Assembly: GCA_964645795.1 (NCBI GenBank) | Contig: CAZYCL010000001.1 | Location: 287,194-351,193, forward strand | From: an uncultured Planctomycetales bacterium | GTDB taxonomy: Bacteria; Omnitrophota; Gorgyraeia; Gygaellales; Profunditerraquicolaceae | Reading direction: 5' to 3' | Length of the DNA stretch: 64,000 bases | Shown: in pieces, positions 1 to 50,742 of the stretch | Layout of the letters: each line of letters opens with the position of its first letter | Position numbering within the stretch: position 1 is the first letter of the stretch | Translations under genes and position numbers: made by a program | The notes under the pieces: model-generated | What the model saw: the letters and a program-made list of their open reading frames with translations, nothing else | Databases searched by the model: none | Told to the model about the DNA's origin: nothing

Positions 1-940
1 CTGCCAGGTTCTTGTCGCTTAAGCCCGAGTAAAGCTTTCTGATCTTAAGGCCGATGTCGATCTCGCCGGAAAATTTATTCTGCCATCTTCTCTCGTAATC
101 GTTTATGCGGTTTGAAAGGATGCACTCGGCGAGGATCTCGGCGCAGCGCATTCCATAATAGATGCCGCCGTGGCTTATGGGTTTGACCTGGCAGGCGGCG
201 TCCCCGACGAGCATCAGCCTGTCTTTATGAACACAGCACCTGCCCAAAGGCACGGCGCCGGCGAACTTTTCAAGGATCTCGCCTTCGATGCGGTAGGCCT
301 TAAGGAAATTAGTGAGGTCCTGATAAGGGTTATCGGAGATGATCCCCGCCCGCACGATGCCCTTGCGCTCCGGGATCACCCAGGCAAAAAAAGGCTTCTT
401 CAAATACACCTGGACGAGATTGTCGCCGGAGTTCTCGTATTTCATCCTGAACTGGACCCCGCGCAGATACTTTATATCTTCGCCGAAACCCGCGACCCTG
501 CGCAGCGTCGAGTTTGCCCCGTCGGCTCCCACCACCACGTCCGCGTAAAACTCCCCTTTATCGGTCTCGACCAAATACCCTTTTCCTTGTTTTTCCAACC
601 CAACAAACCTGGTATTCAGCGCTACGTTAAGGCCCAGCCCCAGGCTATAGTCGAACTTTTCCCGGTCGATAACCACCGCGACATCTTTTCGTTCTATCTT
701 AAAACTGTCATCCTTGAGGAATATCCGTGCGCCGTCTATCCTGTTCAAGATTGTAGCGGTATCGAGCTTTAGTTTTGCCTGGTCAAAAACATCCCTGCTG
801 ACAAGCCCGGCGCAATGGACGGGCTTACCGATCTGCCCATGCTCTTCGATCACTAAAACTTCGAACTTATCCTTCCTGGCATTCAGAATCCTGGCCAGGT
901 AACAACCTATGGGGCCGGCCCCTACTATTAATACTTTCAT
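1..940 (-). CDS. Geranylgeranyl reductase family FAD-dependent oxidoreductase. The 3' end is cut by the window edge; the start ATG is at 938-940.
   Basis: Minus-strand translation from 940 begins MKVLIVGAGPIGCY (Rossmann GxGxxG) and continues with GG-reductase-like motifs. It is absent from the ORF track because the ORF runs off the window edge. Confidence 0.7.
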   Translation of the reverse strand, partial: MKVLIVGAGPIGCYLARILNARKDKFEVLVIEEHGQIGKPVHCAGLVSRDVFDQAKLKLDTATILNRIDGARIFLKDDSFKIERKDVAVVIDREKFDYSLGLGLNVALNTRFVGLEKQGKGYLVETDKGEFYADVVVGADGANSTLRRVAGFGEDIKYLRGVQFRMKYENSGDNLVQVYLKKPFFAWVIPERKGIVRAGIISDNPYQDLTNFLKAYRIEGEILEKFAGAVPLGRCCVHKDRLMLVGDAACQVKPISHGGIYYGMRCAEILAECILSNRINDYERRWQNKFSGEIDIGLKIRKLYSGLSDKNLA

Positions 941-1062
941 GCGCAACTGTCCTTTTTTATAAAACGGATATTATGACGATAGTTTTAAATTTGATTACAA
1001 TGATTCAAAACAAAATGCTTTTATATCTCAATCCGGGTAATCTGTTTTTTAAATCCGCGTGG

Positions 1063-1770
1063 TCATTTTAACAAATCTTCTTTTCCGATCTCCTTAAAAT
1101 AGGCGCAGACCATATCGCCTAAAGGCCCTCCTCCGCGAAGGCTTGCATTATACAAAAAAACTACTTTATCCAGATGCCTGCCCGACCTTTGCTCGTTTTG
1201 GTTGCGGTCCCAATACCGGGCAAGGAACAACTGGATGCTGACGTTCTGAGGATCGAGCTTCTCGGCACAGGAAAACTCCTTCTCGGCTGCATCCCGGTCT
1301 CCCATCAAAGAATAAACCCTGCCCAGCGACAAATGATACACGCCGTTGAACGGATCGCGCCTGATCGCCTTGCGGTAGAAACGCACCGCCTTCTCAAGCA
1401 GCCGTCCTCCCTTGCCGTCATCTGCCTCCTGGACAAATATCGCCCTGAGATCCCCGTCCCCCTCTATCTGAACCAGCGCCTGGGCGTATTCGTAATAAGG
1501 CAGGGGGTTGTGCCTCTGCCAGGCTATGGACCTGTCAAGATTTCCCAATAGCTGCCGCCATGCCATTGACCTCTTTACCAGCAGGGCGCGGTTCAGTGTG
1601 CCGATGTAAGAAAGCCGGCTGCGCGCCTTTCTTAAATAAAAGTCGCTGGCCATCCCGGCAGCCGCCAGATATGCCAGGGATAAAGACAGCGCCAGGCATA
1701 AAACCAGTAATGCGCGGGCCGGCCAGGCGCCGATATCGATTTTGCGCTTATCCAAGTATAGATCGGTCAT
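1063..1770 (-). CDS. Membrane-anchored TPR repeat protein
   Basis: One N-terminal TM helix followed by TPR-like repeats (LGRVYSLMGDRDAAEKEF, AVRFYRKAIRRDP). It overlaps the upstream Wzy-like gene by 23 nt. Confidence 0.55.
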   Translation of the reverse strand: MTDLYLDKRKIDIGAWPARALLVLCLALSLSLAYLAAAGMASDFYLRKARSRLSYIGTLNRALLVKRSMAWRQLLGNLDRSIAWQRHNPLPYYEYAQALVQIEGDGDLRAIFVQEADDGKGGRLLEKAVRFYRKAIRRDPFNGVYHLSLGRVYSLMGDRDAAEKEFSCAEKLDPQNVSIQLFLARYWDRNQNEQRSGRHLDKVVFLYNASLRGGGPLGDMVCAYFKEIGKEDLLK

Positions 1771-3076
1771 CTTTAAACCTGCTGTATGCTAGCCTGTAAA
1801 CCAGGCCCATGATGGAAAAAAACATGATGGCGTTAGAGGGTATATGCAAGTTAAAATCCAGGAAAGAATACAGGATGGTAACAAAAACCGAAGTCAGCCC
1901 CCCGAGGGACAAGCATATCGCGTAGCTGCTGTGGCGCTTCATCCATTCCCCCATAACGGACCTGAAGAACCGGTATACAAAAAGGACGCCGATACCTAAG
2001 CCTAACACCCCCGTCTCCGATAACAGCTGGAGCGCGTCATTATGGGCGTAAGTAAAAAAGCTTTGCGCCGGAGTCGTTTTGTAGAGGGCGGACACGCCGC
2101 TGAAAGTCCCCAGGCCCGTGCCGAAAACCGGAAAATCCATCCACATCCGGATGATATCGGACCAGGGATAACCGTGCCCCAGGAAAAGGAAGTTATCCCT
2201 GCTATAAAGGGTGGAAAGCCTGGCAAGTATCGGCCTTGCCTCCAGAAAAAATACGGTAAGTATCAGTGCGCAGGCCAGCCCCACCCATAAAAGAAAGCTC
2301 TTTTGGCGAAGGATGCCTTTTACCCTGGAAAGGAAAAGGAAAACGCACATGCCCATGCCAAAGACGATAATACCGGCCCTGGAGAAGGAAAGAAAAAGCG
2401 CCATGCACATAATCGCGCAACAACACAGGTATACCGCCCTTTTAGAGAGAGGCATCCTCACCAGCGAATACCCCAGGGACAGCGGAATGATCATGTTGAC
2501 GTAACCGCTGAAGTTATTGCGGTTGACGAACGGCCCGAACGAGGCGCTCGGGTTTATGCCCTGCACAAACCAAGAGAACCTGTCCGCCGAGGCATACCTT
2601 TGCGCTATACCCAACAGGCTTATTATCACGCCCAAGACGATAATGACATTGAGCAGTATATCCAGCTGCCGCCTTGTCTGGACGCCATTGACGATCACCG
2701 CGAATATGCCGATGTAAGAGGCGACCTTTAATAGCTGCTCAGAGCCCATCCAGGGGTTTATGCTCAAGCACTGCGGTCCGTACGACGAGGCAGCGCATCC
2801 CTGAAAATAGGCGTTGATCCCCGGGGAGAAAAACCTGATCATGGGAAGAGGCAAAGGGATAAGCTGAAAAACGGCAAGACAGAAGAACAGGAGCAGGGGC
2901 GTCGTGAGGGAGGTCTTTACAAATAAAAGCTGCCTTCGCAAGCACATCCGGGCCATCCACGCAAAGATCATGATGGCCGCGGCTATCTCGATGACCCCGG
3001 AGGCAAAATGAGTTACGCCGCCTGAAGATATGCTGCTAAATATAATAAGAAAGACCAGGAGCGCTTGAGCAACCAT
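1748..3076 (-). CDS. O-antigen ligase/polymerase (Wzy/WaaL) family polytopic membrane protein
   Basis: 442 aa with about 10-12 hydrophobic helices and a large loop, typical of the O-antigen ligase domain. It sits in a Wza/Wzc context. Confidence 0.65.
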   Translation of the reverse strand: MVAQALLVFLIIFSSISSGGVTHFASGVIEIAAAIMIFAWMARMCLRRQLLFVKTSLTTPLLLFFCLAVFQLIPLPLPMIRFFSPGINAYFQGCAASSYGPQCLSINPWMGSEQLLKVASYIGIFAVIVNGVQTRRQLDILLNVIIVLGVIISLLGIAQRYASADRFSWFVQGINPSASFGPFVNRNNFSGYVNMIIPLSLGYSLVRMPLSKRAVYLCCCAIMCMALFLSFSRAGIIVFGMGMCVFLFLSRVKGILRQKSFLLWVGLACALILTVFFLEARPILARLSTLYSRDNFLFLGHGYPWSDIIRMWMDFPVFGTGLGTFSGVSALYKTTPAQSFFTYAHNDALQLLSETGVLGLGIGVLFVYRFFRSVMGEWMKRHSSYAICLSLGGLTSVFVTILYSFLDFNLHIPSNAIMFFSIMGLVYRLAYSRFKDDRSILG

Positions 3077-3098
3077 AGCGAAGGCGGGGCAGGCCTAA

Positions 3099-4958
3099 CT
3101 AACCCTTCTTCTTAGTGGGATCATCGCTGGAATAATAATAGTGGTAGTAATAGTATGAGTCCTCTTTTCTGACGTTTACGTTATTCAGTATCACCCCGAC
3201 TATCCTGGCCTTGGCCTCGACCAAACGCTGCCTGCCTCTGAGTATCAGATCGATGTTCTGGAAGCTGGCCCTGACTACGTCTATGACGCCGTCCACCTTA
3301 TTGGCCAGTATCGCGCTGTCAGCCACAGTAAGCACCGGGGAAGAATCGAGCAACACGCGGTCAAATTTTGTCTGCGCCTCTTCTATAAGCTGACGGGCCT
3401 TGCTTGAAGTCAGGAGCTCCGCGGGGTTCGGGGGACGCGGACCGCTGGTCATGATAAAGAGATTCGGGATGAATGTCTTCTGGACCGAAGATTCAAGATC
3501 GGATGTGCCCGCAAGGTAACTGCTCAAACCCAGGGGGCTTTCCAGGCTCAGGGATTTACCGATGCGCGGCCGGCGCATATCGGCTTCGATGACCAGCGTC
3601 TTTTCGTTTGCGGAAGCAAAAACAATGCCGAGGTTAAGAGAAACCGTGGTCTTGCCCTCCTCCGGAGTGCTGCTGGTAATGAGTATGGACTTCAAAGGCT
3701 TGTCTTCCGTCGAAGAAAAGATTATGGAGGTCCTGATGGAACGGTAAGCCTCAGCGACGCGCGACTCCGGCAATTTAGAGCAGATCACGTCAATTTCCTT
3801 GCCGGTCTTGACGTCGTTCTTGGCTGAAGGCACGTATCCCAAGAACGGCAGCTTGACGTAGGCTTCAATGTCCTCGGCGTTCTTGACCGTAGAATCGAGG
3901 TACTCTATAAGAAACGCCAGGCATATGCCGATAAAGAAACCGATGGCCGCCCCGGTATAAATGTCTCTTTTTCTATTGGGACTGAAAGGCCCCTTGGGCA
4001 CATTGGCCAGATCCACGATGGTTATGTTTGTGGTCTGAAGGTCGGTGGTAACTTCGGTCTCCTTTATTCTCCTGAGCAGTGACTCATACAGGAACCTGTT
4101 GGACTCCACTTCCCTCTTAAGCACCCCGTACTGCACCATCTTGGCGTTCAACTCCAGGAATTTGCCCGTTTCGTCGGAGATGCTCTGCTCCAGGGCGCTT
4201 ATCTTGCTGCGCAGCGAGATCATCGTCGGGTGCTTCGGCTTATAGCGCTTGCCAAGCTCGGAGACCTGGTTTTCCAGACTTATCTTTTCCTGTTTTAACC
4301 TGTCGATAGAACCCTGGACCTGGTGTTCGACATTGGTGACCGAGACGATCTTGTTATTGAGCAGGTAATCGTTAAGGGCGTTCTCCGAGCTCTCCAGCTT
4401 CCCCTTCAGGCTTAACAGCTCTTTTTCGAGCCAGCCGGTAGCGGTCTTGGTAGCAGCCGTCCTTTTTTCTATGTCCTGGCGGATATAGGTGTTGGTAAGC
4501 GCGTTAGCGTATCTGGAGGCCTTGACCGGATCCGGAAAAATGTAAGCGATGTTGAGTATATTGGAGCCGGGGGTCGGATAAACATTTACTCCCCCCAGGA
4601 AGCTTAACTCCGGCTCGCCCCTGTTCATAAACGTGGTATCTCCGGAAGAGGTCAGCTCCTTAAGCACTTCCCTGGCCAGAGACCTGGAATACAGGATATC
4701 GATCTGATTCTGTATGAACTCCCTGTCGATATAGTAAGGGCTGGAGTAGACCTGCTGGATATTCGGGGCGATCTGAGGGGTGCTTCTTTCGATGAGTATC
4801 TTGGCTATCGCCTTATAGAGCGGCACCTTGCGCATGGTCTGAATGGTAGAGATCGTGCCCACGATAAAGAAGCAGGCAAAGATTACCCAGGCCCTCCTTT
4901 TAAGGATAACCAGGTAATCCTTGATGGTGACATCTCTTAATTGCGACGAAGGTAACAT
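3099..4958 (-). CDS. Polysaccharide co-polymerase / tyrosine autokinase (Wzc/EpsB, BY-kinase)
   Basis: N-terminal Wzz-like domain with TM and a coiled-coil periplasmic region. Walker A GKTTVSLNLG. The C-terminal tail YYYYHYYYSSDD is tyrosine-rich. Confidence 0.8.
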   Translation of the reverse strand: MLPSSQLRDVTIKDYLVILKRRAWVIFACFFIVGTISTIQTMRKVPLYKAIAKILIERSTPQIAPNIQQVYSSPYYIDREFIQNQIDILYSRSLAREVLKELTSSGDTTFMNRGEPELSFLGGVNVYPTPGSNILNIAYIFPDPVKASRYANALTNTYIRQDIEKRTAATKTATGWLEKELLSLKGKLESSENALNDYLLNNKIVSVTNVEHQVQGSIDRLKQEKISLENQVSELGKRYKPKHPTMISLRSKISALEQSISDETGKFLELNAKMVQYGVLKREVESNRFLYESLLRRIKETEVTTDLQTTNITIVDLANVPKGPFSPNRKRDIYTGAAIGFFIGICLAFLIEYLDSTVKNAEDIEAYVKLPFLGYVPSAKNDVKTGKEIDVICSKLPESRVAEAYRSIRTSIIFSSTEDKPLKSILITSSTPEEGKTTVSLNLGIVFASANEKTLVIEADMRRPRIGKSLSLESPLGLSSYLAGTSDLESSVQKTFIPNLFIMTSGPRPPNPAELLTSSKARQLIEEAQTKFDRVLLDSSPVLTVADSAILANKVDGVIDVVRASFQNIDLILRGRQRLVEAKARIVGVILNNVNVRKEDSYYYYHYYYSSDDPTKKKG

Positions 4959-4976
4959 ATTTTCTAAACAAACGGC

Positions 4977-5858
4977 CTAAAAAAATGATTCGGGGACCAC
5001 TATCACATCCTCCGCCTTCAGTGAAACCTCCTTGGAAACAGACTCGCCTTTCATGATCCTCGACACCGGTACCGATATGACCCTCTTCTGCCCCCCCTCC
5101 ACCCTTATGATCTTGGTGCCGTTCTGGGCGGCAGTAGGGCTAAAACCTCCTGCCATGCTTATGGCATCGATGATGCTGAGTTTTTTCTTTAATTTATAAA
5201 TTCCGGGCTTGGCAACCTGGCCGACAACCGAAAAATTTCCGTACTCTCCGACTATTATGGTATCATTGGGCCTTACCTCGATATCCGGGGCCTGCTTGTT
5301 CATTATTTTGTCCATATCCACTATCAGCGTTTCCTTTTTGTTGTCAACTACGCGCATTATCTTGATCTTGCTCACGTCAGCCTCTTCGGTAAACCCGCCG
5401 GCAACAGCCATCACCTGAGTAAACGTCATCCCGCCTTTCATCTGGTAAGAACCCGGGATCTTTACCTGACCGAGTATCGAGATCTTGCCGTACTCCTTGA
5501 TTATTACGTTGACCTGAGGATTCACCAGGTAGTCCTTCTCCAGCAAGTACGATATCCTGGCTTCAAGCTGCCTGGCAGTCAGCCCCGAAGCTTTTATATT
5601 GCCCAGGAGCGGATAGTTTATTGTCCCGTCGCGGTTTATCCGGATCTCCATGGAAAGGTCTTCTTCCCCGTAGACGTTCACCTGCAGAAGGTCGTCCACC
5701 GAAAGCAGGTACTCTCTTTCCCTGGCTACCGGCGCCTGTGAATCATTGACCGCAAGAATCGGGCTGACGGCCGAGAAGAACGCCAGCGCCAGCAAGGCCG
5801 GGAAAAAACACCCTTTAGAACCTGGCCTGCGTAGAAAGCCGGACGGTATGCGTGCCAT
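4977..5858 (-). CDS. Polysaccharide export protein Wza (SLBB domain). The start is taken at the internal Met 5858 that gives a Sec signal peptide.
   Basis: NPQVNV / ISILGQV motifs of the Poly_export/SLBB fold. MARIPSGFLRRPGSKGCFFPALLALAFF looks like a signal peptide. The ORF-track start 5936 adds 26 atypical residues. Confidence 0.7.
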   Translation of the reverse strand: MARIPSGFLRRPGSKGCFFPALLALAFFSAVSPILAVNDSQAPVAREREYLLSVDDLLQVNVYGEEDLSMEIRINRDGTINYPLLGNIKASGLTARQLEARISYLLEKDYLVNPQVNVIIKEYGKISILGQVKIPGSYQMKGGMTFTQVMAVAGGFTEEADVSKIKIMRVVDNKKETLIVDMDKIMNKQAPDIEVRPNDTIIVGEYGNFSVVGQVAKPGIYKLKKKLSIIDAISMAGGFSPTAAQNGTKIIRVEGGQKRVISVPVSRIMKGESVSKEVSLKAEDVIVVPESFF

Positions 5859-38658: not shown

Positions 38659-39210
38659 TTACTTCAGGAACTTAGAGACAAAAGGCGACGTCTCGCCGCG
38701 GCGCATAAAATGCCCGGAAGGGCCTTCGCCGAGGAATTCGGCAAACCAGGACTCGTGCTCGATCTCTTCGTTAAGTATGGCCAGGACCAGATCGTAGGTG
38801 CGGTGGTCTTTGCCAGCGGTCATATTGCATATCTCGGTGTAACCCTTGACCGCGCATCTTTCCGCGTTAGCCAGGACCTTCAATATCCCCTCGACATCTT
38901 CGGGCGACTTCGGAAGATTCGCCGGCGGACATGCAGAAAGGTCATGGAACTTCTTCATGCAGTCCGGAAGCTTGCCTCCCAGCTCATAGATACGCGGGAC
39001 CAGCGCCTCAAAGTGGTTGCGGTCTTCGATCCTGGCGGTCTCGGCTATTTCCTTGACCCCCTCGCCCTTTAAACCAATTAGGTTGGCACGCAAGATCGTA
39101 TAATAGTAATAGGTGGTGATCTCTGCCGACGCGTTCTTTATCAACAGGTCCAACAACTTATCCAAATCCACTCCCGACTGTTTAACCATCTCGATCGCTA
39201 CTTTTGCCAT
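38659..39210 (-). CDS. Ferritin-like diiron protein (bacterioferritin/DPS-like family)
   Basis: Four-helix-bundle ligand pattern: SAEITTYYYY, IEDRNHFE, ANAERCAV, LNEEIEHESW. Confidence 0.6.
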   Translation of the reverse strand: MAKVAIEMVKQSGVDLDKLLDLLIKNASAEITTYYYYTILRANLIGLKGEGVKEIAETARIEDRNHFEALVPRIYELGGKLPDCMKKFHDLSACPPANLPKSPEDVEGILKVLANAERCAVKGYTEICNMTAGKDHRTYDLVLAILNEEIEHESWFAEFLGEGPSGHFMRRGETSPFVSKFLK

Positions 39211-39290
39211 TTTTCTCCTCCTGTTTTAGTATAGCAGCTTAAGTTTCAACTCTTTCTTTTGCAAAGCCTGCATTCCCTCCTTTCATACTT

Positions 39291-39306
39291 ATTACTAATT
39301 AGTAAT
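39291..39306. promoter_or_regulatory. Perfect 16-bp palindrome ATTACTAATTAGTAAT (candidate Fur/PerR-type operator) upstream of the ferritin-like gene
   Basis: Read directly. It lies between the fur 3' end and the ferritin-like gene start, followed by a third half-site TATTACTAA. Confidence 0.4.
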
Positions 39307-39335
39307 TATTACTAACGTTAAACCAAAAAAAAATT

Positions 39336-39779
39336 TTACTTCTTCTTAGCGCACTGCCCGCAGATGCCCTCTAAAACCACTTTCTTGTTTAAAATATTGA
39401 ACCTCGACTTTATCTCTTCGGGTATTTTGATATTATCGTAGTATTCGTTATAAAAATCCACTATCTTATGGCACCTGGCGCACCTGAAGTGGTGATGGGT
39501 TCTTGTGTTGGGGTCAAAACGCTTGGACCCTCCGTAGCCCTCCACTATATTGATCAGCCCTATATCGGAAAGCGAGATGACCGTCCTGTATACGGTATCG
39601 AATGATATATTGGGAAAGGCCGCTTTTATCCTTTTCAGTATCGCCTCAATAGAAGGATGGTCTTCTGCCTTCACCAGCTCCTTGTATATTTCGGTGCGCT
39701 GCGGCGTAAGCTTAAGCCCGCGGCTGCGGCAGGCCTGCCTGAAGCGTTCCATGGCCTCCTGAACATCTGTTTTATGCAT
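39336..39779 (-). CDS. Fur family transcriptional regulator (Fur/PerR/Zur)
   Basis: Winged-helix N-terminus, HHHFRCARC and CGQC metal sites. Confidence 0.85.
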   Translation of the reverse strand: MHKTDVQEAMERFRQACRSRGLKLTPQRTEIYKELVKAEDHPSIEAILKRIKAAFPNISFDTVYRTVISLSDIGLINIVEGYGGSKRFDPNTRTHHHFRCARCHKIVDFYNEYYDNIKIPEEIKSRFNILNKKVVLEGICGQCAKKK

Positions 39780-43371: not shown

Positions 43372-43399
43372 TTGACTGGTATGCCAATTAGTGTAAAAT
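43372..43399 (+). promoter_or_regulatory. Candidate promoter TTGACT-16-TAAAAT for the tRNA-Asn gene
   Basis: TTGACT at 43372-43377 and TGTAAAAT at 43392-43399, about 34 nt before tRNA position 1. Confidence 0.4.
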
Positions 43400-43432: not shown

Positions 43433-43749
43433 TCCCCCTTAGCTCAGTCGGTAGAGCGAGTGGCTGTCAAATCCCGCCAGTGGCGGGATTTGTGCCTAAC
43501 GCAGAGGCGTTCGGCACAAGAGGCAGCTTCCTTGGGAAACCAGGGTTGAAACAGCGGGCTAATTCAGGGAAGTCCCGAGAGATCGGGATAATCCTGAGCT
43601 AAGTCTCCAGTTTAAGGAGTAAATGCGCAGAGACTATACACCCGCCTCCTAAAGCGAAAGCTACGGAGAAGAGATAGTCCACTTCCGGAAGTAATTCCGG
43701 GTCAAGTGTAACCACCAGGTCCGAGGTTCGAGTCCTCGAGGGGGAGCCA
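43433..43749 (+). tRNA. tRNA-Asn (anticodon GUU) interrupted by a group I intron. Exons are 43433-43467 and 43709-43749, including the encoded CCA.
   Basis: Joined exons give TCCCCCT-TA-GCTC-AGTCGGTA-GAGC-G-AGTGG-CTGTTAA-CCACC-AGGTC-CGAGG-TTCGAGT-CCTCG-AGGGGGA-G-CCA. The acceptor stem is 7 bp, U1-A72, G73, the canonical Asn anticodon loop CUGUUAA, a T-loop TTCGAGT, and an Asn-like D-loop. Confidence 0.7.
43468..43708 (+). other. Group I self-splicing intron (~241 nt) between anticodon positions 35 and 36 of tRNA-Asn
   Basis: R-like CAGAGACTATACA (43629-43641) and S-like AAGAGATAGTCC (43669-43680) form P7 (GACTAT/ATAGTC). There are three GNRA-capped hairpins (GAAA, GAAA, GTAA), a terminal omega-G (43708), and the 5' exon ends in U. 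It is too short to encode a homing endonuclease. Confidence 0.65.
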
Positions 43750-43757
43750 TCTTTAAC

Positions 43758-43788
43758 AAATGCCTTACTCATATGAGTAAGGCATTTT
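43758..43788. terminator. Perfect 30-bp palindrome AAATGCCTTACTCATATGAGTAAGGCATTT with flanking T/A runs, directly after the tRNA
   Basis: Read directly. It could act as a bidirectional terminator. Confidence 0.5.
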
Positions 43789-43944
43789 GCTTGCAGATGG
43801 TTTTTTTACGAATTTACGGCATGTTCATAAAACCGAACTTTTTGAAATAAGTTTTCGATAAATTTATTAACATCCTTTTTTTGTTCTTTAATAGTATAAT
43901 GAGCTTCGGGTCTTGATTTAATTTCGGAGGAGATAAAAATAGGC

Positions 43945-44415
43945 ATGAAGGAAGAAGGCCTTGGTAAAGCTCTTTTGAGCGTCTTGGTCGTGTCGGTTGT
44001 GGTGGTTGGTGTTATTGCTTTTATTTTCTATCGGGTGAGGCTGATTGGGCCTGTAATTGTTGTTTTGGGTTTTGTTCCGTTGATTCCTTTGAAGCTGTCT
44101 GGCAGGTCGGTTAAGTCAGCTGGTGCAGACATTATTTTTGGGGCTATCGATACAGGTCTCTTGGGAGTTGCTGCCCTTATTGGGGCGAGTTTTGCTGGAG
44201 TGCTCGGAGCTATTGTCGGTGGTGCTGTCGGGGATTCGATTACTGATGGGTTGGCTGGCTTGTTTGAGGGAAAGATTGCTGAGCGTTTGAGAAAGCTCGG
44301 GATTGATGAAGCACGGACTCCTCTCAGTTCTTCAATGGGGAAGATGAGCGGTTGTCTATTTGGGGTTGGAGTTGTTTTAACAATTGCTTGGAGTATAATC
44401 GGAATAAGTATGTAA
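43945..44415 (+). CDS. Gly/Ala-rich hypothetical membrane protein (AT-rich island)
   Basis: 156 aa, three or four hydrophobic helices, lower GC than the flanks. Confidence 0.4.
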   Translation: MKEEGLGKALLSVLVVSVVVVGVIAFIFYRVRLIGPVIVVLGFVPLIPLKLSGRSVKSAGADIIFGAIDTGLLGVAALIGASFAGVLGAIVGGAVGDSITDGLAGLFEGKIAERLRKLGIDEARTPLSSSMGKMSGCLFGVGVVLTIAWSIIGISM

Positions 44416-44520
44416 AAAAACGGTTATGAAAATATCGTTTGCCACCTACAGCCTTTTCTTACACTGCTTAGTCCTACAAATATCGTAATAGAAAAGTTCG
44501 GATTTTTGGGGGGACGTGGG

Positions 44521-44571
44521 GAGTTTGACTTCCTAACCCTCTGCGATATAATATATTGCAGAGGGTTTTTG
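44521..44571 (+). terminator. 51-nt repeat module ending in a terminator hairpin CCCTCTG-N-CAGAGGG plus TTTTTG (copy 1)
   Basis: A near-identical second copy lies at 46108-46158. Confidence 0.5.
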
Positions 44572-44609
44572 CTTTACAGTTATTCGTTAGGGACAAGTAT
44601 TAAATTAAT

Positions 44610-45617
44610 ATGGCTAAGATAAATAAGCTACTTAGAACGTTACCAGTGCTAATATATTGGATTTTTGCATTATTGGTACTTTTTGAAATAGGAGTTCGGT
44701 TTTGGGGTTATTCCCAACATTATATTTACGACCCAATCTATAAAGAATTTGACAAGAGTAAAGATTTGCCTTATATCCATAAGCCAAATCTTAAAAATGC
44801 TCGAGGGCGCGGATTGACTAATGTCAATACGGATGTTCTGGGTCTGCGTTCAAAAATGCCAGGTATTAAATATGGACCGAAGAAAGAGAATGATTATAGG
44901 ATCGTAATATTAGGCGATTCAGTGGCCTTCGGAGAAGGCGTAAAGATGGAGGAAGACACTTTTGCTCAGGTGCTTGAAGATATTCTTAACACAAAACAAC
45001 ATTCCTTTGTCGTTAAGGTATTCAACTATGGAGTTTCGGCGTACAGCATTAAGAATATGGTGGCAACCTTACAATATAGAGCGCTGGATGTAGAGCCGGA
45101 TTTGGTCCTTATGACGGTCATTCCTGACGACTTTCGGATTGACAGAACGGTTGTTGTAGACAAGTTCGGGTACACCTTTAATAAACGTTTATCCGGTTTC
45201 ATGAATAAGGATTCCGCTATAAAGCGTTTATTACGGGAAGTGCATTTAGTATATCTTCTTAGGGATATAAAGCATTTTTACATTGATCGGATCCGAAATA
45301 CAAAAGACATGGGCCCATCAGATTCCTTGGATGATTATGCTTATATTGTAAAATTTAAAGAGATCTCAACGCAGCATGGCTTGCTTTACGCGGTAGTGCT
45401 TTTACCAGATCTCGCTGAAGATTTTAAAAGTTTGTTAGCAAAATTAAATCAAGATGAAATAGTCTCTATCGACCTCTCGTTTCTTAAGAATGAATTTACT
45501 CCTCGTGAATTTATGGCGAGTAAGTTTGATAGACATCCTTCGGCAATTGTTCATAGAAGAATAGCCAGAATGCTTTCGGAATACATTATAAGCAATCAAT
45601 TGATACCCAAGAAATAG
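44610..45617 (+). CDS. Membrane-anchored SGNH/GDSL hydrolase-family protein (paralogue 2, AT-rich)
   Basis: LGDSVAFGEG (block I) and DRHPS (DxxH). N-terminal TM. Confidence 0.6.
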   Translation: MAKINKLLRTLPVLIYWIFALLVLFEIGVRFWGYSQHYIYDPIYKEFDKSKDLPYIHKPNLKNARGRGLTNVNTDVLGLRSKMPGIKYGPKKENDYRIVILGDSVAFGEGVKMEEDTFAQVLEDILNTKQHSFVVKVFNYGVSAYSIKNMVATLQYRALDVEPDLVLMTVIPDDFRIDRTVVVDKFGYTFNKRLSGFMNKDSAIKRLLREVHLVYLLRDIKHFYIDRIRNTKDMGPSDSLDDYAYIVKFKEISTQHGLLYAVVLLPDLAEDFKSLLAKLNQDEIVSIDLSFLKNEFTPREFMASKFDRHPSAIVHRRIARMLSEYIISNQLIPKK

Positions 45618-45766
45618 CCTCGGAATCTATCTTTAAAAAGGGATCGAAAGGGTTTCTGCATCGAGAAAAATTCGCGGGCATAGATTTGACCATTAGAAAA
45701 ATAAATTCTTAATGACTTAATTTTTTTATAAAACAAAGCCCAACACGACAAGTTTTAATTCCTACT

Positions 45767-45850
45767 CCCCCGTCATACACCAGTTGCAAAACTCGTCCAA
45801 GAGGCGGAGCCAAAATTAGCCCGGCACGAAAGTGCTGGGCTTTTTTATTT
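45767..45850 (+). repeat. Conserved ~60-nt 3' module (CTCCCCCGT..GTTGCAAAACTC..AGGC..AGCCA) followed by a hairpin terminator 45818-45850 (copy A)
   Basis: It aligns with 47240-47300. The terminator is AGCCCGGCAC-GAAA-GTGCTGGGCT plus T6. Confidence 0.45.
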
Positions 45851-46017
45851 TCGCGCCCTCTCGAGAAAAGGGGGATTTTAAGGGGAAAAGACCGTTTTCC
45901 CCTTAAGGTTGAAGTCTTTTGATTGCTAAGGAAGGGATGACACCCGCCACGCTTTTTGGCGGGGCCATAGGGGAAACCATTGGGTTTCCCCTATGGGGAG
46001 CGAGCGCAAGCGAACGA

Positions 46018-46038
46018 CAGGTCCGCAGGTTCGAGTCC
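46018..46038 (+). other. 21-nt near-copy of the tRNA-Asn variable-loop/T-arm segment (CAGGTCCGCAGGTTCGAGTCC), set in a hairpin-dense non-coding stretch
   Basis: It matches tRNA positions 43716-43735 with one inserted C. There is no acceptor-stem match. Confidence 0.4.
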
Positions 46039-46107
46039 CTAAGCGGCCAAGGCGCGAAGCTCCGAGGGAGCGCCGGAAATGCTCTGCATTTCCGGCGCCC
46101 CGAGGCG

Positions 46108-46158
46108 GAGTTTGATTTCCTAACCCTCTGTGATAGAATATATTGCAGAGGGTTTTTG
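46108..46158 (+). terminator. 51-nt repeat module with terminator hairpin (copy 2)
   Basis: GAGTTTGATTTCCTAACCCTCTGTGATAGAATATATTGCAGAGGGTTTTTG, about 92% identical to 44521-44571. Confidence 0.5.
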
Positions 46159-46200
46159 ATTGGATAAAGCGGTTATCCCGTTGGATGATTATTTAATCTA

Positions 46201-47160
46201 ATGATGTTACAAAATAAAAATAGGGCAGATAATTTAAGAAAGAAAATACTTTTGGTGCTGTTAGGGGTTGTTGCGGCGTTGATTCTTGTTGAATTGTTAT
46301 TGCGGATATGCGGTTTTGTCTACAAAAGCATCTATAGTCCGAAGCAAAAAAATTTAGGTAATTATACAATATTTTGCCTGGGCGAATCTACTACATGGGG
46401 AGTTGGAGCAAGGAATCCATCATTGCAGAGTTATCCGAGGCAGTTGGAAGGAAAATTAGCTGTCATGTATAAGAGTTTGGGTATAAAAGTCATTTATGAT
46501 CAAACAATAGGCCAGAATACTTCCGAAATTTCAAATAAACTGCCGTTTTATATTGAAAAATACCGCCCGCAAATAGTAATAATCATGTGCGGCGCTAATA
46601 ATTTCTGGAACTTAGATAAAAGTAACATATTGTTATTTAATAAGAATAAATATATTGCCGATACCGCATTGAATATTTTAATGTTTTTGGATAAATTCAG
46701 GATTTGGAAATTATATAAATGGCTGAGTTTGAATTCTGGTTTTTATAAACATAGATGGAATTATTATTATCCGTATAGTTACCCCTGGTATGTTTTGTTG
46801 AGAGAAATGGAGCGGGAATATAACGGGATGGGTATTTTTTATAAAATTGCGGACTACGATATAAGAGAAATGGTAAAAACCTGCAAACGAAACGGGATTA
46901 AGCTGATTATCTGTAATTATCCGGGCGGGGTAGGCGCGCCCCTTGATTCTTTACAAAAGAAGATTGCTACGGATTTTCAAGTTGTTTTCGTAGACAATAA
47001 GAAAATTTTTGGTGAACTTCCTAATGCCAAAGATTATTTTTCCACAGACAAGTGGCATCCTAATGAAGAGGGATATGGGATTTTGGCTGAAAATGTATAT
47101 GATGCTATAGTCAAAAACAAGCTGTTGCAAAAAAGCAACAATGGCAATACCCTCCCGTAG
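46201..47160 (+). CDS. SGNH hydrolase-like protein (paralogue 3; block I reads GES not GDS)
   Basis: FCLGESTTWGVG and DKWHPNEEG (DxxH). N-terminal TM. AT-rich. Confidence 0.5.
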   Translation: MMLQNKNRADNLRKKILLVLLGVVAALILVELLLRICGFVYKSIYSPKQKNLGNYTIFCLGESTTWGVGARNPSLQSYPRQLEGKLAVMYKSLGIKVIYDQTIGQNTSEISNKLPFYIEKYRPQIVIIMCGANNFWNLDKSNILLFNKNKYIADTALNILMFLDKFRIWKLYKWLSLNSGFYKHRWNYYYPYSYPWYVLLREMEREYNGMGIFYKIADYDIREMVKTCKRNGIKLIICNYPGGVGAPLDSLQKKIATDFQVVFVDNKKIFGELPNAKDYFSTDKWHPNEEGYGILAENVYDAIVKNKLLQKSNNGNTLP

Positions 47161-47239
47161 TTGATACCGAATACTTAGCTTTAATTTACTGAGCCGCTTA
47201 ATTTAATAAAGCCGGCTCTGGGTATGGTTTTTTCGCCTC

Positions 47240-47327
47240 CCCCCGTAATTAACCGGTTGCGAAACTCCTCCGATAAAGGCAGCCATACTTAGAATAGCCC
47301 TACTCATATGAGCAGGGCTATTTTTTT
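47240..47327 (+). repeat. Conserved 3' module (copy B) followed by the hairpin terminator AGCCCTACTCATATGAGCAGGGCT plus T7 (47294-47327)
   Basis: It aligns with 45767-45826. The hairpin centre CTCATATGAG is the same as in the palindrome at 43758. Confidence 0.45.
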
Positions 47328-47606
47328 GACAAATTACCTGAACTGTCGGGTTTGCCGCTGCCCCCATCCCCCGAAAAGCCGGATCTTATTTAATTGTATC
47401 TATTCCGGGGTATTTGTGCTAGACTGTAAATAGTCAACTATCCTTGCACCTCGGTAAAACGAGACAGTCCGTACCCGGCACGCCCTGAAGATCCTTCGCG
47501 TATTCCACCCCAATCAGGCTGTTTTATTTTTCCCTCACGGTTGACCGTTTAGTTCCAAAAATCACTTACTGCGCATCCCCGGCATTTTTCAGGAAGATAA
47601 CGTCAA

Positions 47607-48788
47607 ATGGTAAAAATGAGTAAAAAGATCAATGTGCTCCATGTAGCGACCCTGAACCGGCCGATCAGGCAGGACCTGGGTTACGGCCCTATCGAAACGG
47701 TTATTTATAACATCGATAAGGGCATCCACGCATTGGGCTACCGTTCGATCGTCGCCTGTTCCGGCGATTCCCGCGTTGCCGGAGAACAGTATACCACTAT
47801 TGAAAAAAGCTTCAGTGAATACTGGAGCGAAAATACGCGCGCGCAGCAACGAAATATGCGCAGGCATCTTGCCATGTCGCTTGGAAGGGCAAAAAAAGGC
47901 GACATCGATATCATCCACATGCATGATGCCATTATGGCAGAATATATTTTTAAGGGGGTCTTTAAAAGCCCGGTCCCTATCGTAATGACGCTCCATGTGC
48001 CTGCTGAGGAAAAAGGATCGTTCAAGCGCTGGAATGAATCGCTCGCTTCTTCTTCCGCCGCGTATTTTGTCCCGATCAGCGAATACCAGAGAAGGCAGCA
48101 TCACGGGCTGGTCAACGCGCAGAAGGTCATCCATCACGGCATCGATGTAGAGGGCTACCCGTTCAAAAGCGGCCCCGCAAAACACGACTATCTGTTCTCG
48201 ATCGGCAGGATCACTCAGGATAAAGGCCAGGATAAAGCCATCGAGATAGCGAAGAAAACCGGCTCCCGGCTCATACTTGCCGGCAATGTCCAGAACAAAG
48301 CAAAAGACCGGGCATTTTTCAAAAGATTAAATAAGTCCATCGACCTTGTGACTGACGCCGGAAAGCCTTTTACCGGCAGCGATTATTATGAGAAGGTAAT
48401 GAAACCCATCCTGGATTCGGGCAAGCAGATCATCTATATCGGCGAAGTTGACAGGGACCAGAAAAAACTGTGGTACCTGCACGCGCGCATGACCCTCTTC
48501 CCTATTCAGTGGGGCGAACCGTTCGGGCTCGTGCTGATCGAATCCATGGCCTGCGGCACTCCGGTGGCCGCCTTTCGCAAGGGCTCGGTGTCCGAAATCG
48601 TCATTCACAAAAAAACAGGTTTTGTCGTGGATTCGATAGATGAGATGGCTGAGGCCGCGAGGGCAAGCCGCCTTATCGATCCCAACGACTGCCGCAGGCA
48701 CGTTGAAGATAATTTCTCGATTGCCGTTATGGCCGGGAAATATTCACAACTATACCGGTGGATCTTGACGAAAGGACTCCATGCCTAA
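47607..48788 (+). CDS. Glycosyltransferase family 4 (GT-B, RfaB-like)
   Basis: Conserved EPFGLVLIESMACGTPV (EX7E region) and the GT4 C-terminal domain. Confidence 0.75.
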   Translation: MVKMSKKINVLHVATLNRPIRQDLGYGPIETVIYNIDKGIHALGYRSIVACSGDSRVAGEQYTTIEKSFSEYWSENTRAQQRNMRRHLAMSLGRAKKGDIDIIHMHDAIMAEYIFKGVFKSPVPIVMTLHVPAEEKGSFKRWNESLASSSAAYFVPISEYQRRQHHGLVNAQKVIHHGIDVEGYPFKSGPAKHDYLFSIGRITQDKGQDKAIEIAKKTGSRLILAGNVQNKAKDRAFFKRLNKSIDLVTDAGKPFTGSDYYEKVMKPILDSGKQIIYIGEVDRDQKKLWYLHARMTLFPIQWGEPFGLVLIESMACGTPVAAFRKGSVSEIVIHKKTGFVVDSIDEMAEAARASRLIDPNDCRRHVEDNFSIAVMAGKYSQLYRWILTKGLHA

Positions 48789-50742
48789 AGACATACCGGT
48801 AAGTAACGGGTCTTTTCTTTTGAATTTCGATCCGGATTATCAGATCCGGGATGTTTATTTCCCTTTTATCGGCCAGGAAAACCATTCCAGCGGCCATCCC
48901 TTCCGCTTCGGCGTATGGGCTGATGGCAAATATTCATGGATGGGCCCGGATTGGGAAAAAGACCTGAGATACCATAACGAGAGCCTGGTCACGGATGTCT
49001 TCTTAAAAAATGAGGCCCTGGGCCTGGAGCTGCGCTGCTCGGATGTGGTGGACCTGGATCTTAACATCTACGTTAAAAAGATCGAGGTAACCAACCTGCA
49101 TGATAAGGCGCGGCAGGTCCGGCTTTTTTTCAATCATGATTTTTACCTTTATGGCAACGATGTCGGAGGCACGGCCTATTTTGATCCGCGCAGCTGTTCG
49201 ATCATCCACTACAAGATGCACCGGTATTTTCTTATCAGCTGCCGGGAGCATGGCAATTGGGGCGTCAAACATTTTACCTGCGGCAGGAGAGGGAACCCGG
49301 AAAGCCCAACTGCCGGCAAAGACGGCGAAAACGGGGAGCTTGACGGCAATCCGTCCGCGTGGGGCTCTCCGCATTCTACCCTCGGCATTTGGCTGGAATT
49401 GCCGGCCAAGGGGAAAACAGACGCCTATTACTGGATAGCGGCGGGCACTACCTATCCGGAAGTCGCAAAGCTTAATTTGGAGGTCCATCAAAGATCGCCG
49501 GAAGAGCTCATCAGGCGCTCGTCAAAATATTGGACGACCTGGGTGCATAAACAAACCCTTAAAATAAAGGGGCTGCCAAAATCGATAACCGATGTTTTCA
49601 GCCGCAGCCTCCTTATCCTGAGAACGCAGATCGACAACCATGGCGCCATTATCGCCGCCAACGATTCCGATATCGTCCGTTTCGGAAAAGATACTTATTC
49701 GTATATGTGGGGCCGGGACGGCGCTTTTGTCGCCGCCGCTTTAGCGAAGGCCGGGTACTCCCATGTATGCATGAAATATTTTGATTTTTGCGCCCGCGTC
49801 CTGTCAGAAGAGGGCTATTTATTCCAGCATTATAACCCGGACGGGTCCCTTGCCAGCAATTGGCACGCCTGGCTGGTTGACGGTAAAGAGATCCTTCCCA
49901 TCCAGGAAGACTCGACCGCTTTGACCCTCTGGGCGCTCTGGATACACTACCAGAGCCTGAAAGACGTGGAATTTATCCGACCCCTCTACGGCACGCTCAT
50001 TAAAAAAGCCGCGGATTTCCTGGTCGGTTACCGGGACCCTCAAACCCTGCTGCCGCTGCCTTCCTATGACCTTTGGGAAGAACGTTACGCGCTGCACGCC
50101 TATACGGCTGCGTCCGTGGTCGCAGGCCTCAGGGCCGCAGCTGATTTTGCCAAGCTCTTTCAGGATACCTCCCTGGCGAAAAAGTATGACCTTGTGGCGG
50201 ACGAAATTGCGGCAGGCGTCAGCCAACACCTTTATCATGCCGGACTAAAGCGATTTGCCCGTTCGGGCTCCAGGGTAAACGGTGGTTACAAGCTTGATGA
50301 GGTCATCGATATCAGCCTGTTAAGATTGGCGTCTTTTGGGGTCCTAGACCCCAAAGATCCGCGGATGATCGAAACAGCCAGAGCCGTACGCCAGCAGCTG
50401 TGGCTTAAGACTCCTGTTGAAGGCTGCGCCAGATACCAGGGCGATATCTATCAGCGAGTGGAGAACAGCCCAAAAGACATCCCCGGCAATCCCTGGTTTA
50501 TCGCAACCCTTTGGCTGGCGGAATACTTCATCGACCTGGCAGAGGACCAAGGACAGCTTCAAGCAACCCTTCCTTACCTTGAGTGGTGCGGGAAAAACGC
50601 GCTCCCTTCCGGCGTGCTTGCCGAGCAGGTGCATCCGGTAAACGGCTCACCTCTTTGCGTCTCGCCTCTTACCTGGAGCCATTCCGCTTTTGTCTGGACC
50701 GTCCTGCGCTACACTGAAAAGGACAGGGCGCTTAAAAAATAA
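48781..50742 (+). CDS. Glycoside hydrolase family 15-like protein (glucoamylase/glucodextranase/trehalase clan)
   Basis: (alpha/alpha)6 catalytic-domain motifs YSYMWGRDGAF, LWEERYALHAYT, NPWFIATLWLAEY. 653 aa with an N-terminal beta domain. Confidence 0.7.
   Translation: MPKDIPVSNGSFLLNFDPDYQIRDVYFPFIGQENHSSGHPFRFGVWADGKYSWMGPDWEKDLRYHNESLVTDVFLKNEALGLELRCSDVVDLDLNIYVKKIEVTNLHDKARQVRLFFNHDFYLYGNDVGGTAYFDPRSCSIIHYKMHRYFLISCREHGNWGVKHFTCGRRGNPESPTAGKDGENGELDGNPSAWGSPHSTLGIWLELPAKGKTDAYYWIAAGTTYPEVAKLNLEVHQRSPEELIRRSSKYWTTWVHKQTLKIKGLPKSITDVFSRSLLILRTQIDNHGAIIAANDSDIVRFGKDTYSYMWGRDGAFVAAALAKAGYSHVCMKYFDFCARVLSEEGYLFQHYNPDGSLASNWHAWLVDGKEILPIQEDSTALTLWALWIHYQSLKDVEFIRPLYGTLIKKAADFLVGYRDPQTLLPLPSYDLWEERYALHAYTAASVVAGLRAAADFAKLFQDTSLAKKYDLVADEIAAGVSQHLYHAGLKRFARSGSRVNGGYKLDEVIDISLLRLASFGVLDPKDPRMIETARAVRQQLWLKTPVEGCARYQGDIYQRVENSPKDIPGNPWFIATLWLAEYFIDLAEDQGQLQATLPYLEWCGKNALPSGVLAEQVHPVNGSPLCVSPLTWSHSAFVWTVLRYTEKDRALKK

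Follow-up and report, generated by a model that had tools for sequence, protein, structure and literature searches.

Transfer RNA (tRNA) genes are the classic landing pads of large islands and prophages, and Williams reportedly devised a sublocation scheme for the islands integrated in such genes (tDNA). Integron cassette arrays can occur as CALINs, clusters of attC sites without an integrase, and in the rtT region of the Escherichia coli tyrT gene the downstream repeats each contain the 3' end of tRNA-Tyr; the rtT units contain no genes, are short and nearly the same in sequence, and are attributed to unequal recombination. The asn-tRNA hotspot of Enterobacter hormaechei contains two islands and three modules without an integrase, with six 17-bp direct repeats of the tRNA 3' end as their boundaries (PMC2801613). 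Island ends are marked by the regenerated tDNA and a displaced fragment of it, and the Islander survey found 125 tandems of at least two, and 4 of at least three, islands at one tDNA (PMC4383910). Here, we analyze a 64-kb stretch of DNA (the window, which is the whole stretch analyzed) from a poorly known uncultured lineage, apparently Omnitrophota, in which an intron-bearing tRNA-Asn gene is followed at 43750-47330 by envelope-modifying esterases of the SGNH type and an unusually conserved orphan membrane protein. The best explanation, which we consider probable though far from certain, is that the DNA at 43750-47330 came in by horizontal transfer and forms a mosaic islet adjoining the 3' end of that tRNA gene, built by serial cassette capture.

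Results

The mean GC content of the window is approximately 52%, and it falls to 0.29-0.43 over 43.75-47.4 kb, with the exception of a noncoding patch of GC 0.57 at 45.80-46.10 kb. An earlier reading made from the letters and open reading frames (ORFs) of this DNA (the sequence-only reading) had described an AT-rich stretch that starts right after the tRNA and recovers at the GT4 gene, and had proposed GC and codon usage as a check on whether the region is an outlier. Measured against the 47 other genes of the window, a baseline that is the window and not the whole genome, the GC content at third codon positions (GC3) is 0.41 for the Gly-rich membrane-protein gene, 0.37 for SGNH1 and 0.38 for SGNH2, compared with 0.644±0.039 and a minimum of 0.556. 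The Karlin codon bias B is 0.56-0.83 for the three genes (0.83 for the membrane-protein gene), compared with 0.27±0.06 and a maximum of 0.42, and both measures place them more than 6 standard deviations off the other genes. Both flanking genes have host-like GC3 (rSAM/SPASM 0.56, GT4 0.63). The left edge is the CCA of tRNA-Asn (43749), with AT-rich DNA from 43750, and the right edge lies somewhere between 47328 and approximately 47390, just ahead of a conserved GT4 promoter and leader. The islet is therefore foreign in composition with sharp edges and starts directly after the last base of an intact (regenerated) tRNA gene, as expected of the horizontally acquired insert that had been suggested.

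The junctions within the islet resemble the 3' half of the same tRNA. All four (J1-J4; Table 1) close with an acceptor-like GAGG.GGAG, the terminal sequences being ACGTGGGGAG in J1, AAGAGGCGGAG-CCA in J2, CCGAGGCGGAG in J3 and AAAGGC-AG-CCA in J4, compared with TCGAGGGGGAG-CCA in the tRNA itself, and the tRNA-derived junctions all lie on the strand of the tRNA. J3 is a copy of exon 2 that is split by a hairpin-bearing insert; without that insert, it is identical to exon 2 at 33 of 38 positions, a score equaled by none of 60 shuffles, and its last 4 nucleotides (nt) are the start of the second copy of a 55-nt repeat. The near-copy of the tRNA T-arm that had been noticed earlier (46018-46038; 20 of 21 bases, one base inserted) turned out to be part of J3. 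J2 and J4 are two copies of a module of approximately 55 nt, modA and modB, which a module profile finds with nhmmer E-values of 3e-11 and 8e-10. modA aligns with exon 2 end to end, from the anticodon loop to CCA (0 of 5000 shuffles equal the score), and in a search of both strands of the window the best two non-self matches to exon 2 are J3, without deletion of its insert, and then modA.

Each SGNH gene had been said to be followed by the same module plus a hairpin terminator, and 45767-45850 indeed aligns with 47240-47327 at approximately 70% (0 of 2000 shuffles equal the score). The tRNA 3' end with its trailer and the terminator hairpin T1 likewise aligns with the 3' end of modB, its trailer and the terminator hairpin T5 (0 of 2000 shuffles). 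J1 is weaker: it resembles a module of another contig, L166 (CGTAATAGAAAAGTTC compared with CGTAGCACAAAAAGTTC), and was found only by a profile that included J1. By these alignments, J3, modA and the modB trailer are alike to the tRNA 3' region, and J1 weakly so. The far end of the islet hence appears to carry a displaced 3' tRNA fragment in direct orientation, with fragments that are degenerate rather than exact. Both repeat motifs, the 55-nt repeat and the module, occur in the 64 kb only at the sites of Table 1, with a chance expectation of 0.

Three other identities of the module were tried and rejected. As protein-coding sequence, the module might have been a partitioned gene fragment of SSV type, since every copy translates on the minus strand into WLPL.DEFRNWCMT-like peptides, but stops flank each copy, no longer ORF contains the motif and there is no codon-phase or synonymous signal (p = 0.18). 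As structured RNA, the copies have no helix in common and no Rfam match. As an integron attC site, the R''/L''...L'/R' cores are absent, GTTGCRA is unlike GTTRRRY, and the hairpins have the T-runs of terminators. Breaks in the assembly at 43720 and 46033 fall on the repeated 21-mer, and their reading as population variants was dropped, given that the repeated 21-mer itself accounts for them.

The junctions also carry predicted transcription signals. T1 (fold z = -6.2) and T5 are 78% alike over their hairpins (43762-43793 and 47297-47328), and the palindrome center CTCATATGAG does recur as had been reported, although the true first site is approximately 10 nt to the right of the position first given. 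What had been described as a 51-nt terminator-bearing repeat extends to 55 nt, and its two copies, T2 and T4, are 93% identical, each with a T-run behind a terminator hairpin of 14-15 bp. A putative promoter occupies the hairpin loop and its 5' flank, and a transcript started there would be without the 5' arm of the hairpin; the 55-nt element could therefore both insulate a gene from upstream transcription and drive its expression, with the promoter activity of T2 and T4 deduced from their promoter-like boxes. The hairpin cluster between T3 and T4 lies in a region (45850-46165) that folds at -159.6 kcal/mol (z = -9.4). The cluster itself has no Rfam match and no homologue among the retrieved loci, and an 82-amino-acid (aa) ORF in it has no Pfam match. 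On the minus strand at 45802-45839, over T3 plus CUAAUUU, the Rfam Acido-Lenti-1 RNA scores 28.1 bits, under the gathering score of 37, and this match is probably merely the T3 hairpin.

Table 1 Features of the tRNA-Asn locus and the adjoining islet, in positions of the window
Feature	Position	Strand	Details
Promoter-like site at tRNA exon 1	43372-43399		TTGACT-16-TAAAAT
tRNA-Asn(GUU) exon 1	43433-43467	+	Acceptor 5' strand, D arm and 5' half of anticodon arm
Predicted group I intron	43468-43708	+	241 nt, in the anticodon loop
tRNA-Asn exon 2, including encoded CCA	43709-43749	+	Presumed attachment site (att); resembled by all islet junction repeats
T1, terminator hairpin after the tRNA	43758-43793	+	Hairpin 43762-43793; center CTCATATGAG at 43768-43777
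Promoter-like site of membrane-protein gene	43867-43895		GGAGG ahead of ATG
Gly-rich membrane protein, cassette 1 gene	43945-44415	+	156 aa; 4-5 predicted transmembrane helices
J1, weak module-like junction	44477-44524	+	Acceptor-like end GACGTGGGGAG; precedes first 55-nt repeat
T2, 55-nt repeat copy 1	44520-44574	+	15-bp hairpin 44535-44567 plus T-run
Putative promoter nested in T2	44525-44552		TTGACT-16-TATAAT, sigma70-like, 11/12 match; 36 nt before SGNH1 ATG
SGNH1, cassette 2 gene; N-terminally anchored SGNH/GDSL-type hydrolase	44610-45617	+	GDS block; DRH replacing DxxH
modA (J2)	45760-45815	+	Ends ...AAGAGGCGGAGCCA; family-specific core GTTGCAAAACTCGTCC
T3, intrinsic terminator	45818-45851	+	10-bp stem, 7 GC pairs, T-run
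Noncoding cluster of near-perfect hairpins	45852-46107	+	GC-rich (0.57); contains J3
J3, split copy of exon 2	46012-46110 (46012-46038 + 46100-46110)	+	61-nt hairpin-bearing insert 46039-46099; ends in CCGAGGCGGAG
T4, 55-nt repeat copy 2	46107-46161	+	Hairpin 46122-46154
Putative promoter nested in T4	46112-46139		TTGATT-16-TAGAAT with TG extension; 40 nt before SGNH2 ATG
SGNH2 cassette gene; N-terminally anchored SGNH/GDSL hydrolase	46201-47160	+	GES block I; DKWH block V
modB (J4)	47232-47290	+	Ends ...AAAGGCAGCCA; homologous to modA
T5, terminator hairpin	47297-47332	+	Homologous to T1
Right flank, outside the islet: promoter and ~190-nt leader of GT4-GH15 operon	47390-47606	+	

The same junction elements recur in other organisms. 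The contig L166 (Logan SRR12594517, GC 0.33-0.36) begins inside the T2 promoter-hairpin, with a match of 31/31 nt, and continues with an SGNH1 homologue (67% amino-acid and 74% nucleotide identity), a module (...AAACTCGTCTACGATGGGGAGCCA), a T2-like hairpin, a methyltransferase gene and another module. The unit of promoter-hairpin, SGNH1 homologue, module and hairpin is thus also found in an unrelated low-GC contig. On L151, a metagenome contig of GC 0.58, three modules lie on one strand, 1.8-2.0 kb apart (182-4089), and separate a PMT_2-like glycosyltransferase, an ankyrin/beta-lactamase-like protein and a homologue of the Gly-rich membrane protein; one of the three is just upstream of that homologue. 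A Nitrospirales metagenome-assembled genome (MAG; L034) has one module. Using the module profile on 1.8 Mb, the best non-member match is tRNA exon 2, with an E-value of only 1.6. An IMG/VR scan for the module core gave 12 matches, of which one is a full module and 11 are apparently chance or coding matches, and a scan of viral sequences for the full module pattern gave 0 matches.

In a contig of IMGVR_UViG_3300029288_007087 (L173/L179; L179 2909-5024), a tRNA-Asn(GTT) is followed on the same strand, after 690 nt that include a cytidine-deaminase gene, by a module. On the 5' side of this tRNA, the contig has a tyrosine integrase (4113-5024; PF00589, 1e-24) alongside phage genes for lysis and tail; the orientation is unusual for a tRNA-integrated prophage. 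This integrase may be a candidate for the recombinase that the islet lacks. As judged from these contigs, the junction elements appear to be portable, recurring at gene boundaries in unrelated organisms and twice behind a tRNA-Asn.

The three genes of the islet have different relatives. The 156-aa Gly-rich membrane protein of the sequence-only reading is real, with more than 480 homologues (clusters at 90%) of 70-78% identity in Bacteria and Archaea, named sources including Actinobacteria, Chloroflexota, Methanobacterium, Methanocellales and Thermoplasmata; clustering at 50% leaves approximately 126 representatives, many of them fragments. The family has the invariant motifs GADIxFGxIDT, GAIVGGxVGDxITD and RTPLSSSMGKMSGC. 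It is stand-alone, with no recurrent neighbor in 61 metagenome loci (L094-L165), and its genes are AT-rich in several mid-GC contigs too. The protein has no match in Pfam, NCBIfam or PHROG and none in the PDB, either by sequence or by fold (AF2 model, pLDDT 80, 4-5 helices). A viral origin was considered for it and rejected, with no IMG/VR relative and no PHROG match.

Both SGNH proteins have a hydrophobic N-terminal segment and the Ser and Asp/His blocks listed in Table 1. SGNH2 matches PF13472 at 53.2 bits (gathering score 32.9) and is a predicted member of the superfamily. SGNH1 is borderline, with weak Pfam and NCBIfam SGNH matches and 18 bits against the SGNH/GDSL profile, under the gathering score; its homologues carry PF13472/PF25182. 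Relatives of SGNH1 have 66-69% identity in other contigs and approximately 50% in Acidobacteriota, Nitrospirota and others, and the nearest are outside glycan clusters, stand-alone in unrelated contexts. Homologues of SGNH2 have at most 52% identity, and the named ones are all Omnitrophota, typically in rSAM/B12/PMT_2/GT clusters. The idea of a glycan-modification island hence fits SGNH2 but not SGNH1 or the membrane protein, whose relatives stand alone elsewhere. From the differing phyletic distributions of SGNH1, SGNH2 and the membrane protein, the histories of the three genes seem to be unrelated.

The two SGNH genes had been taken for tandem paralogues from a duplicated cassette. Both encode N-terminally anchored proteins of SGNH type and both have the same layout, in which the 55-nt promoter-hairpin precedes the gene by 36-40 nt and a module and terminator come after it, as a local tandem duplication of a promoter-hairpin/SGNH/module/terminator unit followed by divergence would leave them. 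However, identity between the two proteins is only 20% (pairwise E = 0.003), against 70-93% for the noncoding elements around them, and joint duplication predicts the reverse. SGNH1 is also closer to SGNH0, encoded upstream (30% identity), than to SGNH2; the two families differ in taxonomic range, and their match lists already suggest a separation well before the origin of this lineage. Furthermore, the unit after that of SGNH1 in L166 encodes a methyltransferase and has these junction elements too. We regard the duplication as highly improbable: to judge by their sequences, SGNH1 and SGNH2 are superfamily relatives of different families and not a duplicated pair, so that calling them tandem paralogues overstated their relation.

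A second alternative is that these are native, vertically inherited envelope or glycan genes, the AT-richness reflecting a local constraint and the repeats being shared co-regulatory elements. Such genes would be at home in a neighborhood with more SGNH genes, FkbM, rSAM/SPASM, GT2, PMT_2 and GT4, and SGNH2-family genes are normally within such clusters in Omnitrophota. The 41-43.4 kb region is also rather GC-poor, the palindrome over the -10 box looks operator-like, and no island-free relative turned up. Native inheritance nevertheless has to contend with the GC3 of the islet genes, which lies below the window minimum and changes abruptly right where the tRNA stops and again ahead of the conserved GT4 promoter, and with the copies of the tRNA 3' half at the junctions. 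Junction elements that flank homologous as well as non-homologous genes in unrelated organisms, and a membrane-protein family with 70-78% identity across Bacteria and Archaea, are further evidence against it, and we consider it quite unlikely.

The tRNA gene at the left edge is itself unusual. ARAGORN on the whole window returns zero tRNAs because a group I intron splits the gene, whereas the joined exons (43433-43467 + 43709-43749) give a canonical 76-nt tRNA-Asn(gtt). The full-length model Rfam RF00028 matches at 43488-43701 with 83.9 bits (gathering score 50; E = 7e-20), the last base of the 5' exon is U and that of the intron is G, and the sequence fits ...CUGU/C...GUG/UAA (slashes mark the splice sites). 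Covariance score, splice rule and joinable exons thus all point to a group I intron, within which there is no ORF. In the Asn reading, the intron is between U35 and U36; a splice register moved by 2 nt also satisfies the U/G rule, is formally possible and would give Thr(UGU). Asn is favored because the spliced tRNA has U1-A72 and G73 and resembles the Omnitrophota tRNA-Asn of L013. In the literature searched, the tRNA genes listed with group I introns are those for Leu(UAA), fMet, Ile(CAU) and Arg(CCU), and Asn is absent from the list (PMC5733544). With the intron-bearing gene overlooked by tRNA finders, the genome would be annotated as without tRNA-Asn.

On the other side, the GT4 promoter and leader (47390-47600) are conserved in other Omnitrophota (blastn 86-88% to L005 and L026; six-sequence alignment). 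No Rfam family matches the leader, which may act as a regulatory RNA. The GT4-GH15 pair (47390-50742; L005-L084) has 60-89% protein identity across many phyla, including Omnitrophota, Nitrospirota, Nitrospinota and Thermodesulfobacteriota, with unrelated flanks: in 80 loci from a GH15 contig scan the pair is common and nothing else is, with no consistent tRNA adjacency, and the nearest genomes share only GT4-GH15 with the window.

Two further observations concern DNA on the left side. The region at 41-43.4 kb is slightly GC-poor, and the FkbM and rSAM/SPASM genes at 41.1-43.2 kb have the lowest GC3 (0.56-0.59) among the host-like genes; these may be older acquisitions. Another short AT-rich intergenic stretch, with GC 0.36-0.44, lies at 39050-39650 between a ferritin-like gene and the SGNH0 gene.

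Discussion

Beyond what the sequence-only reading had proposed, our alignments and models suggest that the modules derive from the tRNA 3' half and have since decayed, that the 55-nt repeat holds a promoter and that the tRNA gene is intron-split. Together with the foreign composition, this argues for an islet assembled from small cassettes, three or four in number and each complete in itself: those of the Gly-rich membrane protein and SGNH1, the hairpin-rich noncoding piece, and that of SGNH2. A terminator hairpin would open each cassette and block read-through from the tRNA or the preceding cassette, and a hairpin of the T2/T4 type would in addition hold the cassette's own promoter in its loop. 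At its far end, each cassette would carry a decayed copy of the tRNA-Asn 3' half that finishes in the acceptor-like GAGG.GGAG(CCA). We infer that such an array could arise by serial site-specific recombination at the tRNA-Asn 3' end, catalyzed by a tyrosine integrase acting in trans. At each event the incoming element would rebuild the tRNA 3' end and bring a terminator, and the previous 3' end would be displaced downstream as a scar, so that the tRNA end and terminator present before any insertion would survive as modB and T5, beside the native GT4 promoter. A tandem single-gene array with worn tRNA ends is what serial integrase-mediated insertion into tDNA would leave, on the principle given in PMC4383910; the integrase-mediated origin of the scars and the order of events are both deduced from this layout.

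Several results weigh against serial capture by an integrase. There is no integrase, recombinase or transposase domain (Pfam, including PF00589) in the ORFs of at least 150 aa in the 64 kb or in the islet ORFs, so no tyrosine integrase gene lies inside the islet, and the absence of an integrase claimed in the sequence-only reading extends to the whole window. The organism, probably an Omnitrophota bacterium, is known from MAG and Logan contigs only. No empty-site variant was found; the islet is in every contig of the species from several samples, all these contigs being of the same strain (99.9-100% identical). modB alone is not significantly similar to exon 2 (1266 of 5000 shuffles equal the score), the modA score of 13 exceeds the window background maximum of 12 by a small margin, and both modules are far more diverged from the tRNA than J3. 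The likeness of T1 and T5 extends past the tRNA end, which simple att recombination does not predict. The modules of L034 and L151 have no tRNA in reach. Finally, the modules share the core GTTGCGAAA.TCGTCC across organisms and, because this core is unlike the tRNA T-arm, they seem to be conserved for a reason of their own, perhaps as an attP arm or a regulatory site.

These last points are what would be expected if the ~55-nt module were the functional element itself, such as a protein-binding DNA site, a 3'-untranslated-region or leader RNA or a selfish repeat, with a tRNA likeness that is partial or convergent. The core is kept in at least five organisms of GC 0.33-0.58 and aligns over 45 nt free of indels, genes begin 100-200 nt after some copies (L151), and the copies in L034 and L151 are without a detectable tRNA. 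Yet the copies share no conserved secondary structure, Rfam match or codon-phase signal, and in two independent contigs (the window and L179) the module lies downstream of a tRNA-Asn on the same strand. In addition, the right boundary of the module is the tRNA-like ...GGAG(CCA) end in every copy. We hold a purely functional module to be unlikely, and serial capture at the tRNA remains our preferred explanation.

More speculatively, and in our view rather unlikely, the modules could mark an undescribed integron-like cassette system that is anchored at tRNA-Asn, served by a tyrosine recombinase in trans and exchanged across distant lineages. A cassette would then be a terminator/promoter hairpin, an ORF and a ~55-nt attachment repeat that ends in the tRNA acceptor sequence, and the lineages would include the apparent Omnitrophota host, the Nitrospirales MAG and contigs of GC 0.33 and 0.58. 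L179 may show that recombinase beside its tRNA, and the anticodon-loop intron might interfere with use of the site or have co-evolved with it. If the module is a cross-phylum attachment site, it would be a searchable marker for small mobile cargo that is overlooked by island finders that require an integrase.

Comparison with known systems

The locus suggests that the logic of tRNA landing pads also applies at single-gene scale, and each of the closest described systems shares a part of its layout. As in integron arrays and CALINs, the units are short, mostly single-gene and in one orientation, a site-like repeat of approximately 55-60 nt follows each, and an array is possible without an integrase. 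Unlike in those arrays, the module lacks the attC-type imperfect palindrome with its RYYYAAC/GTTRRRY cores, the hairpins are T-run terminators, the cassettes have putative promoters of their own, and the anchor is a tRNA gene and not attI/intI; no IntI with attI and Pc stands beside the array, there being no integrase in the window. The rtT region likewise has repeated units behind a tRNA gene, each with a tRNA 3' terminal segment, but the units here enclose different foreign genes and their junction elements are common to other organisms.

The enterobacterial asn-tRNA hotspot (HPI/ICEEh1, EhGI1, EhGM3-5; PMC2801613) has in common with this locus a tRNA-Asn target, tandem foreign segments of atypical GC, a direct repeat of the tRNA 3' end that bounds each segment, and some segments without an integrase. 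Only the hotspot has perfect 17-mers, modules of 10-60 kb, at least one P4-type integrase and demonstrated circular excision products (PMC2801613). Here, in contrast, the repeats are degenerate, the cassettes are of 0.3-1.5 kb with single genes, no integrase lies within the 64 kb, a group I intron is predicted in the tRNA, the scars have a conserved extension that is not tRNA, and the cassettes appear to have their own transcription signals. Islander islands (PMC4383910) share the intact tRNA gene, the displaced direct 3' tDNA fragments at island ends and the tandem arrays. Islander demands an integrase gene and a tDNA fragment per island (PMC4383910), whereas this islet is integrase-less and far under the usual size, and its fragments are too diverged for exact-match mapping. 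Compared with these systems, the locus is a small-scale, integrase-less form of the known pile-up of mobile DNA at tRNA genes.

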